The translations under genes were made by a program, and so were the position numbers. Source: Limnochordia bacterium (GTDB lineage Bacteria; Bacillota; Limnochordia; DTU080). From it: a stretch of DNA of 64,000 nucleotides. Location: positions 160,001-224,000 of the forward strand of contig JBMNJG010000005.1 in assembly GCA_050951545.1 (NCBI GenBank), given 5' to 3'. Below, in pieces: positions 53,390 to 58,317 of this stretch (position 1 is its first letter; each line of letters opens with the position of its first letter). Below the pieces are notes generated by a model, which saw only the letters and a list, made by a program, of their open reading frames with translations, did no database searches and was not told where the DNA came from.

Positions 53390-55437
53390 TTGCCCACCTC
53401 ATCGCCTGATGACCGTACGTGCTGACGAACCTGCTCCACGAACGTGCAGATAGGCTCATGCTTGCCAAAAGAGAGCACCACGTAGATCCCGGCAATAAGC
53501 GAGCTGGCCTGCGTCACGAGTTCAGCGGCTTGCGTGAGGCCGACCCTGAGTCCATCGTCCCCGGCGAGTTCAAGCTCGCGGCGGATGGCCTCCGGCACAG
53601 TGATCCCGGGGACCTCATTGTGAAGGTAGACCGCATGCCTGTAGCTGTGGAGAGGCATCACTCCCAGCAAGATAGGCACATCGCAGCCCCCAATCTCATC
53701 CAAGACCCGATGCAACGGGGCCAGATCATAGACGGGTTGCGTCATCACAAACTGAGCCCCGGCTGCCAACTTCCGGCGAAAACGATCTGTCTCACGCGCC
53801 AGATCGTCAGCGTTCGGGTTCAGAGCACAGCCTACTGCGAAGTCCGTGGCCTGCCCAGTCGGGTTGCTAAGCAGGTCACGTCCAGCGTTGAGTTCGGTAA
53901 GCACACGGATAAGACCGATGGCGTCCACATCATATACCGGCGTTGCCTGCGTGACATTGCCCAACGATGGCGGATCGCCAGTCAACGCCAGTATATTGCG
54001 CAACCCCAAAGCATGGGCGCCCAGCAAATCGGATTGCAGCCCCATCAGATTGCGGTCCCGCGTTGTCAGATGCACAATGGTTTCCACGCCAACTCCATGC
54101 TCAATGAGATGCGCACTGGCCATGGCGCCCATCCGCACCCGGGCCATCGGACTATCTGCCACATTGATGCAGTCAACACTAGCAGCCTTGAGCGCTGTGG
54201 CAGCTTCGAGGAACTTCTTGGTCACCGAACCCTTGGGAGGATCCAACTCGACACTGATGACAAACTCACGGCCTAGGTTGGCCCGCAACCCTCGATCAGC
54301 TGCCCGGGGAGTAGCTTCCGTAACCTCCTCCACAGGACGAACCCGCGGGCGAAGAGGGCTCGTACCCTGACCAGCGGGGGCTGCCATCTTCCTCTCCAAC
54401 TTGACGCTTGGCGATACGGCCTTCGACGCCCCGACTGCGTCGCCGTTGGTGCTGTTGGTTTGCCGCGCGTCGAGATACTCTCTCATGGCTGCGATGTGCT
54501 CCGGTGTCGTGCCGCAGCAGCCGCCAATCAAGCGTACACCCCGACTGATGAACCCCTCCATCATCGCTGCGAAGTACTCCGGTGTGGCTGAGTAGAGCAC
54601 GCGGCCGTCTACGTATGCTGGCAGACCAGCGTTGGGCATGGCAGACCACATGACAGGGAACGTGATGCTTTCCTGCAGCGTCTCCAATGCCTCCACCACG
54701 TGGACAGGACCGCTGCTGCAGTTGACACCGATCACATCAGGGTAGGCCGCAGGATCCAAGTCGTTTAGGGCGGCCGCCACGCCCTGCGGCGTATACCCAG
54801 CGGCGGTGGCCTGCCTCACACCATTACCCAGACCCGGCAGATTACGGGGAGCACCATCTGGCCAGAAGGCGAATTGCACAACGATGGGCAGTTTGGAGAT
54901 CTCACGAGCAGCTCGAATGGCCTCACTCGCCTCCACGGGATCTGCCATAGTCTCGATAACGAAAAGATCGACACCACCGGCAAGCAAAGCCTCCATCTGT
55001 TCTCGGAAAAGAGCGCGCATCTCTCGCCGTCCCATTGTGCCCGCTACGCCAATTGGTAAACCTAGAGAGCCCACTGATCCCGCCACCAGGGCGGCCTCAC
55101 CAGCTATCTCGCGCGCTGCTCGAGCAATCTTAGCACCCCACACATTGATATCCCACACCCGCTCCTCCTGACCGCATTTCTGCAGTCTGATCCGGTTAGC
55201 ACCATAGGTGTTGGTCTCAATCAAGGATGCTCCGGCCTGCAGATAGTCCAGATGCGCCTTCTGGACTATCTCCCGATCTGATAGATTCAGACACTCAAAG
55301 GATCTCGCCGCCCGGTCACCTCGCTCGTGAAGCAAGGAACCCATGCCGCCATCAGCCAACAAGACCTCCCCCTGCAGACGTGAGAGGAATGCGCGCACAG
55401 CGGAAGGGACATCCGCTCTGCCAGTAAGTGGAGCCAT
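53386..55437 (-). CDS. yitJ: Bifunctional homocysteine S-methyltransferase / 5,10-methylenetetrahydrofolate reductase
   Basis: ADGGMGS, GVNCS and GGCCGTTPEHI, then VELDPP, NVADSPMARVRM, RDRNLMGLQSDLLG and HNEVPGI. Confidence 0.92.
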   Translation of the reverse strand: MAPLTGRADVPSAVRAFLSRLQGEVLLADGGMGSLLHERGDRAARSFECLNLSDREIVQKAHLDYLQAGASLIETNTYGANRIRLQKCGQEERVWDINVWGAKIARAAREIAGEAALVAGSVGSLGLPIGVAGTMGRREMRALFREQMEALLAGGVDLFVIETMADPVEASEAIRAAREISKLPIVVQFAFWPDGAPRNLPGLGNGVRQATAAGYTPQGVAAALNDLDPAAYPDVIGVNCSSGPVHVVEALETLQESITFPVMWSAMPNAGLPAYVDGRVLYSATPEYFAAMMEGFISRGVRLIGGCCGTTPEHIAAMREYLDARQTNSTNGDAVGASKAVSPSVKLERKMAAPAGQGTSPLRPRVRPVEEVTEATPRAADRGLRANLGREFVISVELDPPKGSVTKKFLEAATALKAASVDCINVADSPMARVRMGAMASAHLIEHGVGVETIVHLTTRDRNLMGLQSDLLGAHALGLRNILALTGDPPSLGNVTQATPVYDVDAIGLIRVLTELNAGRDLLSNPTGQATDFAVGCALNPNADDLARETDRFRRKLAAGAQFVMTQPVYDLAPLHRVLDEIGGCDVPILLGVMPLHSYRHAVYLHNEVPGITVPEAIRRELELAGDDGLRVGLTQAAELVTQASSLIAGIYVVLSFGKHEPICTFVEQVRQHVRSSGDEVGK

Positions 55438-55714
55438 CTCGCCAAATCCCTTCTAGTCTTACGGCTTCGTTCACAATGGAATCAGCCTGCGGATAATGAT
55501 AATGATCAGCCAACTTCAACACCACAGCGGCGATCACCTTTTCCAGAGCACAGTAGCATCACCAAGAACGAACGTGACCATTCCATGGTGCCCCACAAGA
55601 GGCGCAGGGGGTGACCGACACCCGCAATGAGTGGGTTGACTGCTTCGGGAAGCTGGCCGAGCAGTCGGCTGCCAGCGAAACGCAGGTCTGAAGATCCGGG
55701 CAGACAGAACCAGT

Positions 55715-55845
55715 GAGCATCGACCGCTTCTTACCGAATTGGGTGATGTAACCGGTGTGTGCACGGGTCTGCTTTGGCAGGACGGCACTGGTCACCGCTG
55801 CGGGCTAGCGCTGTCCTACCCAGATGCGCCCATCACGACCGGAAA
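55715..55845 (+). repeat. Upstream copy of the repeat family flanking the HTH-nuclease gene
   Basis: 55715-55754 matches 57308-57347 at 34/40; CGGGCTAGCGC..CCTACCC at 55801 recurs at 57601. Confidence 0.8.
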
Positions 55846-55991
55846 ACGTGCCATCGCGCCTCGCTTGGAAGAGCTCGGTGCACGCCGCCTCTGGTTTTGT
55901 CTGAATCGACCTTTTGGTGAAGGAACCCTACCGGAGAGTGTCGAACATGTATTCGGGACCCGAACAGACATTCTGGCTGGAGGTGGCACCC

Positions 55992-57020
55992 TTGGATATC
56001 GAAGAGGTTCGCGTGCCGATCTCGTTGCTGCTCACTAGCCAGTTAAGAGCGACGGATAAGGTAGTTTGGCTGGCTCTCACACTCGACGCTGAATTGGGGC
56101 AGCGAGCCCGTCTGTCGCCCACTCGCCTCGCTGCTCGTACCGGTTTGTCCCGACCCACCATCCGCAAGGCTACGGCAAAGCTAACCACTGAGGGCTGGTA
56201 CAATCTGCCCACAGGCGTCAACCGGGCCCCAGCAAAAGGGCTGTCGGGGCCAAGGGTGGTCATGCCTACTGAGCTGATCATCGCCACGGAGGTCAGTGCT
56301 CAGGCCAAGGTGGTCTATGGTGCACTGCAGGCCACGCCGGATTACCGTAATTTGCAGGGCGTGTTCACATATGCATCTGTGGCCCGGATGATGAGTCTAG
56401 ACGCCAAGACGGTCAAGCGGGCCGCTCGACAGCTGGCCAAGCTGGGCTGGCTGGAGACGCAGCAGGAGCACAAGCAAGCTCCCATTTGCTTCAGCCTCTG
56501 CAACCCGGTCGCCCGCAGGTACATGGATGAACTGCTAGCGGCGCAGCAGCGACTCGACGAGGCTGAGTTCTTCGGACAGACCTTGATGCAGGAATACCTA
56601 TCGGCTATTTTCGACTCCGATGACCATAAGGACAACGCGTCTCCCCGTTTTCTAGTCAACCCGGCTACTGGCATGTTACTGGAGCTCGACCGCCACTATG
56701 ACCTCGAGGCCGTGGCCTTTGAGTTTAACGGGCCACAACACTACACCCCTACCAAACGGTTCTCGGCTGACGTGGTCGCCAAGCAGATGGAACGTGACAA
56801 GACCAAGCGTGAATTGTGTGAGGAGAACAAAGTCACGTTGGTTGTGATCCATGCCAAGGACCTGTCCTGGCTCACCATGAAGTTCAAGGCTGGCCAACTG
56901 CTGCCGTTGCGAAGCGACCTTAACAAGAAACTCCTCAGGTACCTCGATCTGAGGAGTCGCTTCTACCGCGAGACGGCTAAGGGTGGCTGGGCGCCCACCA
57001 GTGACGCCGCCAACGAATAG
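55992..57020 (+). CDS. Tandem winged-HTH protein with C-terminal Vsr/DUF559-like PD-(D/E)XK nuclease domain
   Basis: Two internal repeats (VPISLLL..KVVWLAL..LAARTGLSRPTIRKA..L..EGW and MPTELII..KVVYGAL..VARMMSLDAKTVKRA..L..LGW). Nuclease motifs FLVNPATGMLLELD, AFEFNGPQHY and QMERDKTK..C....LVVI. TTG start after GGAGGT. Confidence 0.8.
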   Translation: MDIEEVRVPISLLLTSQLRATDKVVWLALTLDAELGQRARLSPTRLAARTGLSRPTIRKATAKLTTEGWYNLPTGVNRAPAKGLSGPRVVMPTELIIATEVSAQAKVVYGALQATPDYRNLQGVFTYASVARMMSLDAKTVKRAARQLAKLGWLETQQEHKQAPICFSLCNPVARRYMDELLAAQQRLDEAEFFGQTLMQEYLSAIFDSDDHKDNASPRFLVNPATGMLLELDRHYDLEAVAFEFNGPQHYTPTKRFSADVVAKQMERDKTKRELCEENKVTLVVIHAKDLSWLTMKFKAGQLLPLRSDLNKKLLRYLDLRSRFYRETAKGGWAPTSDAANE

Positions 57021-57300
57021 CCAACGACGGCCAAGAGTGCGCTATAGCCTCGAATCATCTCTCCCCCTTCACCAAAAGGGGTCTCAGCAACCTCTCGCTG
57101 CCGCTCGCTGAAGCGGGTGCCCCTATGCCCTCGCCCAGGTGCCCTCGCGACGAGTCGTGACAATAGCAGACCCGTGGTGCGCCAACGGGCGCTGCGCTTC
57201 CTGCTGTAACCGCCTCGAAATCACAATGTTGCGCCCAATAGCCATCTTGCCTTGCCCAGAACCCGCCTCGTCGCCTGGTCCACTTCCTGTGATCGAAGAT

Positions 57301-57561
57301 GAAACTGGAGCATCGCCCTCTTCTTGCCGATTTGGGCAATGTAACCGACCCCGGGCCCCGACCCGGGCCCCGACTCACCAGCCGGGTCCGGGACTGACGG
57401 AAGTGAAACTGGAGCATCGCCCTCTTCTTGCCGATTTGGGCAATGTAACCGACCCCGGGCCCCGACCCGGGCCCCGACTCACCAGCCGGGTCCGCGACTG
57501 ACGGAAGTGAAACCGAGTGGGCATCGCCCCCTTCTTGCCAAATCAGGCGATGTAACCGACC
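57301..57561 (+). repeat. 104-bp tandem repeat (two near-identical units plus a diverged partial third)
   Basis: Units start GAAAC at 57301, 57405 and 57509; each full unit carries an internal 12-bp duplication CCCGGGCCCCGA. Confidence 0.95.
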
Positions 57562-57801
57562 TGTGTATCGCCCACGACGAGCCTGGGCATCGACACACGA
57601 CGGGCTAGCGCGGCCCTACCCCGACCCAACTGATCACAGTCGGTGCAAACCCTAGCATGGAGGAAGACCACAGTCAGAATCCTAGTCATACTTGAAATGA
57701 ACTGGTGGGGCCTTTCCAAAGGCGGCGCAACAGCGATACGCGAATTCTCGTCACCGTATTCGCCCGTATTCCCCCGTGTTCACGCCGACGAGTATTCGCG
57801 G

Positions 57802-57830
57802 TTGCGTGGCTCGAGGGATAGTGCTATAAT
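57802..57830 (+). promoter_or_regulatory. Sigma-A promoter of tRNA-Arg
   Basis: TTGCGT-N17-TATAAT with extended TG. Confidence 0.8.
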
Positions 57831-57843
57831 GTGAAAGCGGTAG

Positions 57844-57920
57844 GCGCTCGTAGCTCAGCTGGATAGAGTGCTTGACTACGAATCAAGAGGCCAGAGGTTC
57901 GAGTCCTCTCGGGCGCACCA
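57844..57920 (+). tRNA. tRNA-Arg(ACG)
   Basis: Complete cloverleaf: GCGCTCG acceptor, anticodon arm CTTGA-CTACGAA-TCAAG, GGTTCGAGTCC T-arm, CCA end. Confidence 0.97.
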
Positions 57921-57921
57921 G

Positions 57922-57970
57922 CAAGAAACACCTCCACGAAGCGGTTTTCGGGAGGTGTTTCTTGTTTGTT
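57922..57970 (+). terminator. Intrinsic terminator after tRNA-Arg
   Basis: CAAGAAACACCTCC...GGAGGTGTTTCTTG followed by TTTGTT. Confidence 0.8.
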
Positions 57971-58317
57971 GGGGGTTGGGGAAGGGCGGTTTTGTAGCCA
58001 ATGTGTAGCCAACAGGTTCTGCCACGAAGGCTAGGGTATGTACCAAGGCGGTTGTCGAGCAGTCGGGTCGACGCGTCGAACCCGAACCTAGATGCAGCCG
58101 CACACTAATCTATCTGTAGCTTGCGTAATAAGGGACGCTTTGGTGAATATCCATAAAAAGAAACAGGAAAATCCTTCTAGGGTGTGGTAATACTATCCGG
58201 ACATTGAAGCCGCCTACTCGGATGTCCCAGTTACCCGCGGAGATGTGCGCTTGGTCGCGCTAAGCAACAAGAGGTATCCATGTCGATGATGCCACGCCTT
58301 GAATATCAGGGAGGTCC

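Follow-up and report, generated by a model that had tools for sequence, protein, structure and literature searches.

A probable family of mobile elements in Bacillota built around a gene for two winged helices and a Vsr-like nuclease

To our knowledge, every bacterial transposon that is well understood relies on an enzyme of the DDE/DEDD, HUH, serine, tyrosine, or Cas1 type. The element considered here lies at approximately positions 55707 to 57785 of a 64,000-nucleotide stretch of DNA from a Limnochordia bacterium (the window; GenBank assembly GCA_050951545.1, contig JBMNJG010000005.1, positions 160,001 to 224,000), upstream of a tRNA-Arg gene. Its single gene codes for a protein with two predicted winged helix-turn-helix (wHTH) modules and a nuclease domain of Vsr-like fold. 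We believe, with a probability of roughly 0.55, that this region is one subfamily A copy of an undescribed family of insertion sequence (IS)-like elements of Bacillota, the protein of which drives mobility. The element works like an IS yet fits no known transposase class, and its nuclease has the fold of the Vsr-like homing nucleases without their motif or behavior. A literature search at the level of titles and abstracts returned no description of this element family.

Several described systems share part of this design. Like classical IS elements, the members of the family measure 1.5 to 4 kb and carry a single gene, and those of subfamily B have imperfect inverted ends, 9-bp target duplications, and deletion derivatives; they differ in the lack of a known transposase class, in their long tandem arrays of end-like repeats, and in an insertion point fixed 16 nt upstream of -35 hexamers. 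The EDxHD/Vsr-like homing endonucleases resemble the present protein in nuclease fold (I-Bth0305I), in sequence (phage ORF194), in their selfish context, and in having an N-terminal DNA-binding part. However, the present family lacks the EDxHD motif, does not reside in an intron, intein, or conserved gene, and has copies that, instead of occupying a single homing site, are inserted at unrelated positions and flanked by 9-bp duplications. Restriction-fold nucleases that function in transposition are also found in Tn7 (TnsA) and R2 (its endonuclease), and both appear in our Foldseek list at E values of 0.3 to 0.5. TnsA works with the DDE protein TnsB and the R2 endonuclease with a reverse transcriptase, whereas no second protein is encoded in the present family.

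The ends of IS605 elements are not inverted repeats with duplications. IS605-family TnpB nucleases are described as aiding transposon retention and not transposition (PMC10055086). The TnpB-only IS200/IS605 derivatives are comparable to the present family: according to the same account, they are multicopy and have as their only protein a nuclease that need not be a transposase (PMC10055086). The present family has neither a guide RNA nor a RuvC fold, and no TnpA-like partner was found. The plasmid initiators RepE and pi likewise combine a tandem winged-helix pair with neighboring direct-repeat arrays. In contrast to these, the present protein is fused to a nuclease, chromosomal, dispersed, and without plasmid relatives, and its array units span 94 to 405 bp rather than about 20 bp. 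Finally, repetitive extragenic palindromic (REP) sequences and their RAYT genes also represent a gene tied to a repeat family with hairpin potential, a parallel drawn in a preliminary description of this locus made from the window sequence. The present family has no HUH enzyme, and the analogy is unsupported because the subfamily A repeats are not scattered on their own, apart from the gene.

Dispersed copies, tandem arrays, and element ends

In the 3.64-Mb genome, 33 tblastn matches to the gene correspond to 28 loci, once the split matches of three frameshifted genes are merged and a fragment at C6:159606 is left out. These loci form four subfamilies: A (7 loci, including the window), B (15), C (4), and D (2), with protein identities to the window copy of 94 to 97%, about 47%, about 48%, and about 49%, respectively. 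Inside a subfamily, DNA identity amounts to 91 to 99% over the gene and the non-coding parts and stops sharply at the edges; judged from where homology ends, the elements are 1.5 to 4.1 kb in size. The copies are located on many contigs with unrelated flanks, so that the gene is neither single copy nor syntenic, and this refuting case named in the preliminary description does not apply. The family is absent from both same-genus genomes searched (G001 and G002). To judge from these comparisons, the elements are dispersed and have been copied recently. The preliminary description had proposed a selfish or mobile system, in good agreement with the 28 loci, the repeats that travel with the gene, and the absence from both relatives, and there is in our view little doubt that these are mobile elements built around the wHTH/nuclease gene.

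That gene is the sole ORF (open reading frame) common to all four subfamilies, no second conserved ORF being found. The ratio of nonsynonymous to synonymous substitution rates is 0.24 in subfamily A (15 pairs among six intact copies) and 0.14 in subfamily B (36 pairs), which indicates purifying selection on the gene among the copies; 3 of the 22 genes in A and B are frameshifted. Two of the C copies lie inside a duplicated segment of about 8 kb in the host genome (G000 C8:3-8478 and C9:71932-80123); in one alignment, some 3 kb of it are 98.7% identical. Because of this setting, we ascribe these two copies to a larger duplication or a composite element and not to transposition of a single element.

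Each of the three larger subfamilies has its own repeat array. In A, units of 94 to 104 bp follow the gene on its 3' side (94-bp units in 2.1 to 4.6 copies outside the window); in B, units of about 405 bp with 21-bp sub-repeats precede it; and in C, 262-bp units are found on the 3' side. Tandem arrays are present in 7/7 A copies and 12/15 B copies, and C-unit matches adjoin all four C copies. Co-occurrence of repeats and gene, a check suggested in the preliminary description, is complete for subfamily A: all 34 genome matches to the A repeat unit adjoin A gene copies.

Subfamily B has the best-defined ends. Its termini, GGGGCCACGCAAAAAACTGCGG... and ...GCGATTTCGCGTGTGCACCC, form an imperfect inverted repeat when read inward. 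Target duplications of 8 to 9 bp, unrelated in sequence (CACGCCCGA, ACCTTCCCT, AGCTGCTT, ACCATACG, and CTTCGCGAA), flank five of the eight gene-bearing B copies for which both ends were located; the remaining three show no clear duplication. An internally deleted derivative of 1881 bp on contig C12 is bordered by GAGTAAAAT and GAGTAGAAT, an 8/9 match, and there are gene-less and internally deleted derivatives whose ends are intact. For the B copy on contig C11, an empty site exists in both same-genus genomes: the flanks, 3305 and 3281 bp apart in the present genome, are separated by 246 bp in G001 and 220 bp in G002, where the downstream promoter is conserved and no repeat is found. The C2 copy, also tried as an empty-site test, had no synteny on its left flank and was set aside. 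On this evidence, subfamily B can be regarded as a demonstrable transposon with defined imperfect inverted termini, 9-bp duplications, and an empty site, a behavior that the preliminary description had not anticipated. Elsewhere in the 3.64-Mb genome, B ends occur only in B elements and their gene-less or deleted derivatives, and no partner element was detected. Both end types recur in subfamily C, where the gene that they enclose is inverted. A second right-end type (GAGTGCACACGAGA.ATGGCGGTCAAC...) was observed at C7:457695-458150 and C16:2079-2332 of G000, with the left-end-like motif GGGTCCACGCAAAAAATAGCGG directly after it, which points to partial elements, nested or in tandem, within two B copies.

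The ends of subfamily A are of another kind, being direct repeats of one core. The left edge of the window copy is sharp (55707-55714) and opens with one such repeat core; to the left of their elements, the seven A copies share no homology. On the right, the window and C16 copies share a 3' terminal segment with 96% identity over the first 79 nt and about 70% thereafter. In the window, this segment ends in ...CCCCCGTGTTCACGC (...GTGTTCACGC at 57785), similar to the B right terminus ...CGCGTGTGCACCC, and in both copies the B-like terminus is followed by a -35 hexamer at 16 nt. We place the window element at about 55707 to 57785 since the segment has this B-like end 16 nt from the tRNA-Arg -35 hexamer; from these two copies, we infer that the segment belongs to the element. 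Candidate target duplications for A gave only partial 5- to 7-nt matches at plausible positions. An 8/9 match of CGACGAGT (57148 and 57786) was rated as chance and is unsupported in the C16 copy.

The family extends beyond this genome. It was found in 13 of 40 related genomes, with up to 13 copies per genome, some of them with stop codons, and a profile search returned 385 clusters at an E value of ≤1e-30. Database entries bear generic names ("helix-turn-helix domain-containing protein" or "ArsR family transcriptional regulator"); where a source is named, it belongs to Bacillota. A search of 72,556 plasmid records gave no relatives. In other genera, homologues are often accompanied by nearby 15- to 30-bp tandem repeats (no control run), at several loci as 15- to 22-bp repeats within about 300 bp of the gene. 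One of them (L056, G009:C5:232000-239500) has tandem units of 223/285 bp with 15-bp sub-repeats just upstream of the homologue, a B-like layout. The copies in G009 are only 65 to 83% alike, and ends are undefinable there. Protein P0010, listed on 149 database contigs and considered as an independent multicopy case, was rejected, as it was found once in the genome contigs and once in its own genome.

In assembled contigs of three metagenomes (X4, X9, and X14), the window copy is represented at both of its junctions, and its interior is covered about 4 to 9 times as deeply as the flanks. No contig in these samples joins across the element; only internal skips of 89 and 106 bp were seen. Depth also rises 10- to 100-fold over 54368-54551 (yitJ-like gene) and 57680-58047 (tRNA-Arg), peaks that probably come from conserved sequence of other organisms in the samples.

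The wHTH/nuclease protein

The ORF at 55914-57020 on the plus strand, the only gene of the element, encodes 368 amino acids (aa) when read from its TTG, 367 aa from GTG 55917, 357 aa from the first ATG, and 342 aa from TTG 55992. The six A paralogues have an ATG start that aligns with GTG 55917, which is the probable start in the window. The preliminary description rightly recognized a lone ORF with non-coding flanks; the length of 342 aa that it gave applies to the TTG 55992 start only.

Two winged-HTH modules, as named in the preliminary description, are borne out by matches to Pfam HTH_36 (5e-8, aa 44-95) and to MarR/TrmB-type families (aa 148-194). On the full protein, Pfam returned winged-helix families only and no Rep_3-type match, and NCBIfam gave only weak matches to regulator families. 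An AlphaFold model built from 38 homologues has a predicted local distance difference test (pLDDT) score of 88.7 for the whole protein, and the nuclease domain modeled by itself scores 89.5. Besides the two winged helices, the linker, and the terminal helix, the full model displays an alpha/beta domain. The wHTH pair matches the pi initiator on iteron DNA (2nra; aa 26-199) with a Z score of 8.2 over 165 residues and RepE54 (1rep) with a template modeling score of 0.46 over 222 columns. Together with PHROG matches to replication initiation proteins (4.5e-9), this is consistent with the resemblance to replication initiators that had been suggested from the sequence.

The nuclease motifs FLVNPATGxLLELD, EFNGPQHY, and RDKxK, already pointed out in the preliminary description, are present and conserved. 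Eight residues (D259, E270, G273, Q275, H276, Q291, R294, and K298) do not vary among the 38 homologues, and N272 and D295 are almost invariant. The Vsr-like fold is supported by comparison of the domain-only model with I-Bth0305I (3r3p; Z 8.3, root mean square deviation 2.9, 93 of 98 residues) and Vsr (1cw0; Z 8.3, root mean square deviation 2.8, 105 residues). A Z score of at least 8 was reached by only 2 of 48,161 chains, and restriction-fold nucleases make up almost all of the 20 best matches; further matches include NGO0050 (Z 7.7), RAP domains, and TnsA (Z 6.4, 113 residues). At the sequence level, PHROG returned a homing endonuclease family (1.6e-7) and tblastn the free-standing "homing nuclease" ORF194 of Bacillus phage 0305phi8-36 (31.7% identity, E = 9e-6), the phage matches covering the nuclease part only. 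One viral DUF559 cluster in Atlas (score 0.83) is a lead only. Taken together, the models and matches support a gene product in which two RepE/pi-like winged helices are fused to a Vsr/EDxHD-like restriction-fold nuclease. Neither Pfam and NCBIfam nor fold comparison identified a DDE, DEDD, HUH, serine, tyrosine, or Cas1 transposase family, in line with the earlier remark that no DDE, HUH, or serine/tyrosine enzyme is encoded here.

Promoter-proximal insertion and layout of the window copy

At many B ends, 16 nt (the 9-bp duplication plus 7 nt) separate the terminus from a -35 hexamer, which is followed after 17 to 18 nt by a -10 hexamer, and the promoters point away from the element. Under a strict definition, met by 0.32% of 20,000 random positions, a full promoter occurs in 7 of 22 B end flanks, six times at 16 nt and once at 11 nt: 4/11 right-end flanks (offsets 16, 11, 16, and 16) and 3/11 left-end flanks (all 16). 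The sequence TTGACR is found exactly at +16 in 4/11 right flanks (P ~2.5e-11). In addition, 5 of the 28 elements end 60 to 250 bp upstream of a tRNA gene (P ~2e-9), which the promoter-proximal rule explains. The exactness of the 16-nt spacing argues for mechanistic target choice over mere survival of harmless insertions, and the fixed offset from the -35 hexamer amounts to a precise, orientation-aware target rule. Conceivably, the protein reads TTGAC directly, or it may recognize a promoter complex or bound RNA polymerase. Motifs of the form TTGACCGCC/ATTTC are common to the B arrays and the type-2 right ends and are similar to the TTGAC at the targets.

At the level of titles and abstracts, we encountered no bacterial transposon in the literature that inserts at a fixed distance from the -35 hexamer. 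The eukaryotic retroelements Ty3 and Tf1, which target promoters or Pol III, insert at a fixed short distance upstream of the transcription start signal, sparing genes, by means of integrases that are tethered to transcription factors. The present elements share with them the fixed short upstream distance but are not eukaryotic retroelements with integrases. At the C11 copy (just right of 347441, locus L071), the targeted promoter is followed by a leader (GTGATGAAGGGGAGGAGTA.CGG...) that is conserved in G001 and G002 and may be a riboswitch or leader RNA.

The layout of the window copy is given in Table 1. Between the ORF and its neighbors lie 476 nt on the 5' side, up to a yitJ-like ORF (minus strand, start 55437), and 823 nt on the 3' side, up to the tRNA-Arg(ACG) gene. 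The 5' leader is kept in 4 to 5 of the seven A copies and replaced in copies C5b and C4. The direct repeats 1800 bp apart that the preliminary description reported are real (a 24-nt pair at 55801 and 57601, 88% identity); the tandem array downstream of the gene had gone unnoticed. A 63-nt repeat family is found at 55699, 57292, 57396, and 57503, with identities of 62 to 73%. The perfect inverted repeats said to bracket the ORF do exist, 14 bp at 55910/57066 and 12 bp at 55762/57165, but they are not conserved across element copies: the 14-bp pair is perfect in the window copy only and the 12-bp pair in 2/7 A copies. We read them as incidental because the other A copies do not keep them; by our own estimate, a 12-bp inverted pair within 2.8 kb is near chance expectation. 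A small stem-loop (CCCCTT..AAGGGG) is located within the 3' spacer at about 57064-57081. The idea of a repeat-derived RNA found no support, as Rfam at an E value of ≤1 returned only the tRNA over the window region and the repeat-core hairpin is not maintained from copy to copy. At the same threshold, no S-adenosylmethionine or other riboswitch was detected in 55438-55700, the 5' region of the yitJ-like/metH-like operon on the minus strand.

Table 1. Features of the window copy and its target (positions in the window)
Feature	Positions	Strand	Remarks
Left boundary and single repeat core	55707-55754	+	A-copy homology begins within ~10 nt of 55707-55714
Left repeat core, GAGCATCG...GATGTAACCG	55715-55754	+	Then GGTGTGTGCACGGG, similar to subfamily B right terminus
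5' leader	55755-55913	+	Includes direct-repeat segment CGGGCTAGCGC..CCTACCC (55801-55824)
Gene	55914-57020	+	wHTH1 (aa 30-95), wHTH2 (aa 114-195), helical linker (aa 198-232), Vsr/I-Bth0305I-like nuclease domain (aa 239-332), C-terminal helix (aa 338-356)
3' spacer	57021-57294	+	Conserved in 7/7 A copies
Tandem array, period 104 x 2.5	57295-57565	+	Repeat span measured 57295-57561
Three array repeat cores	57308-57347, 57412-57451, 57519-57558	+	
3' terminal segment	57566-57785	+	Common only to window and C16 copies
10-bp subterminal repeats	57754-57781	+	Inside 3' terminal segment
Target context	57786-57830	+	16-nt spacer, then tRNA-Arg promoter
tRNA-Arg promoter	57802-57807 (-35), 57825-57830 (-10)	+	TTGCGT; 17-nt spacer; TATAAT
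tRNA-Arg(ACG)	57844-57920	+	Host gene 3' of element

Weighing the explanations

In the mechanism that we envisage, the winged helices would bind the repeated end-like motifs in arrays and termini, and the nuclease domain would cut the element ends and make the 9-bp staggered cut in the target. Joining would take a further step, either host repair or end joining (Ku) or replication primed from the cut target. That the wHTH/nuclease protein itself is the mobility enzyme seems to us a little better than an even bet. The fuller version, a new class of prokaryotic DNA transposon in which the protein is a transposase that binds the repeats, makes 9-bp staggered cuts, reads promoters, and lands 16 bp upstream of the -35 hexamer, is put forward more tentatively, at slightly less than even odds. 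The host genome has a single Ku (PF02735) match, at G000 C3:133863-134384. It lies beyond the left end of the B copy C3:130871-133716, at a distance of about 150 bp; this is probably a coincidence but would matter if host end joining completes insertion.

Several observations weigh against a family of IS-like elements driven by this protein. As for the ends, those of subfamily A are ragged on the right, 5/7 copies stopping within the array, and comparison of the seven copies revealed neither a target duplication nor inverted termini. In the window and C16 copies, the 16-nt spacing depends on the less conserved 3' segment, and a strict promoter is found at the homology-defined right edge of only one of the seven A copies. 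None of the six A copies tried yielded a clean empty site. At the window locus, the yitJ-like and patatin-like genes of G001 (C43:4000-11000, L046) are separated by about 3.9 kb with three additional ORFs, of 182, 618, and 328 aa, and tRNA-Arg(ACG) is on the opposite strand compared with the window, so that the locus has been rearranged between the species. The genes that flank the C4 copy are 140 bp apart in G001, 113 bp apart in G002, and about 3.1 kb apart here; the boundaries are not clean because the extra DNA consists of the 2.0-kb element and about 1.1 kb of other sequence. The four other A copies have one side without synteny in the relatives. No B end motif adjoins the homologues of other genera: of 20 loci, 17 lacked such motifs, and the remaining three contain only weak matches with 5 to 6 mismatches elsewhere in the locus. 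Hence, inverted termini and target duplications are displayed in one genome only.

Other such points concern the protein. Foldseek gave nothing at an E value of ≤0.001 for either model, with values of 0.1 or worse for the nuclease domain. The nuclease domain (C-terminal 169 aa) has no Pfam nuclease match at an E value of ≤10, and sequence searches of the PDB with the single protein and with profiles returned weak winged-helix matches and none for this domain. The EDxHD motif is absent, the 38 homologues showing ELD...FEFNGPQH...RDxxK instead, and PADLOC yielded no credible match (best E value, 0.019). Evidence of expression consists of a single 112-nt RNA contig over 56478-56589, too little to claim expression. 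We know of no restriction-fold nuclease that carries out strand transfer alone, which leaves the insertion chemistry with a missing step, and 9-bp duplications are typical of DDE enzymes. Moreover, with an assembly completeness of 93.9%, a partner element could have been missed in the assembly.

These last points would also fit mobilization of the elements in trans by another transposase, with the wHTH/nuclease as cargo that either maintains sites by cutting vacated or empty ones or acts as a regulator. The 9-bp duplications and inverted termini could then be read as the traces of a DDE enzyme. The gene-less and internally deleted B derivatives with their intact ends show that such mobilization is possible, and the incompleteness of the assembly leaves room for the enzyme. 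TnpB, as portrayed in the cited account, sets a precedent for a nuclease other than a transposase (PMC10055086). Against this, four subfamilies with different ends and arrays and about 48% protein identity all carry this gene alone, which is under purifying selection among the copies, and no other element with B ends is present in the 3.64 Mb. Furthermore, the gene is inverted in subfamily C while the two end types are retained, so that ends and gene stay together through rearrangement. On balance, we consider mobilization in trans unlikely, although it is the main alternative.

Spread of a free-standing homing endonuclease gene by double-strand-break repair among its own repeat copies, the RAYT/REP-like idea of the preliminary description, appears improbable. 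The closest solved folds and the phage sequence matches are homing nucleases, and direct repeats of a single core border the A element, as would suit such a gene. However, there are no gene-free A repeats that could serve as targets, given that all 34 unit matches lie beside A genes, and the seven A copies have left flanks that bear no relation to one another. For subfamily B, homing is largely refuted by the duplications of unrelated sequence and by the empty site devoid of any repeat. Scarcely more credible, and perhaps a shade less so, are integrated mini-replicons in which the double winged helix is a Rep initiator and the arrays are iterons. The fold matches to pi and RepE on iteron DNA, the PHROG replication-initiation families, the 21-bp B sub-repeats, and the 15- to 30-bp tandem repeats near many homologues elsewhere (seen without a control) all point in this direction, but the plasmid records contained no match, Pfam no Rep_3-type family, and the elements sit at promoter-proximal sites in the chromosome and possess termini and target duplications. 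Should transposition be replicative, this idea may nevertheless hold in part. Finally, an ordinary, immobile host regulator family expanded by duplication, as the database names might imply, is hardly reconcilable with 91 to 99% DNA identity that includes non-coding parts, copies on many contigs with unrelated flanks, target duplications, and one empty site.

In conclusion, a 28-copy family that carries a wHTH/Vsr-like nuclease alone implies either that a restriction-fold nuclease drives transposition with help from the host, which would be a new mechanism, or that a partner is hidden. This reading also provides a function for several hundred database clusters named only "helix-turn-helix protein." If the protein reads promoters, it is a possible tool for promoter-proximal insertion. 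Promoter reading, if true, would also explain how a compact genome tolerates so many copies, the position upstream of the -35 hexamer being a safe site.

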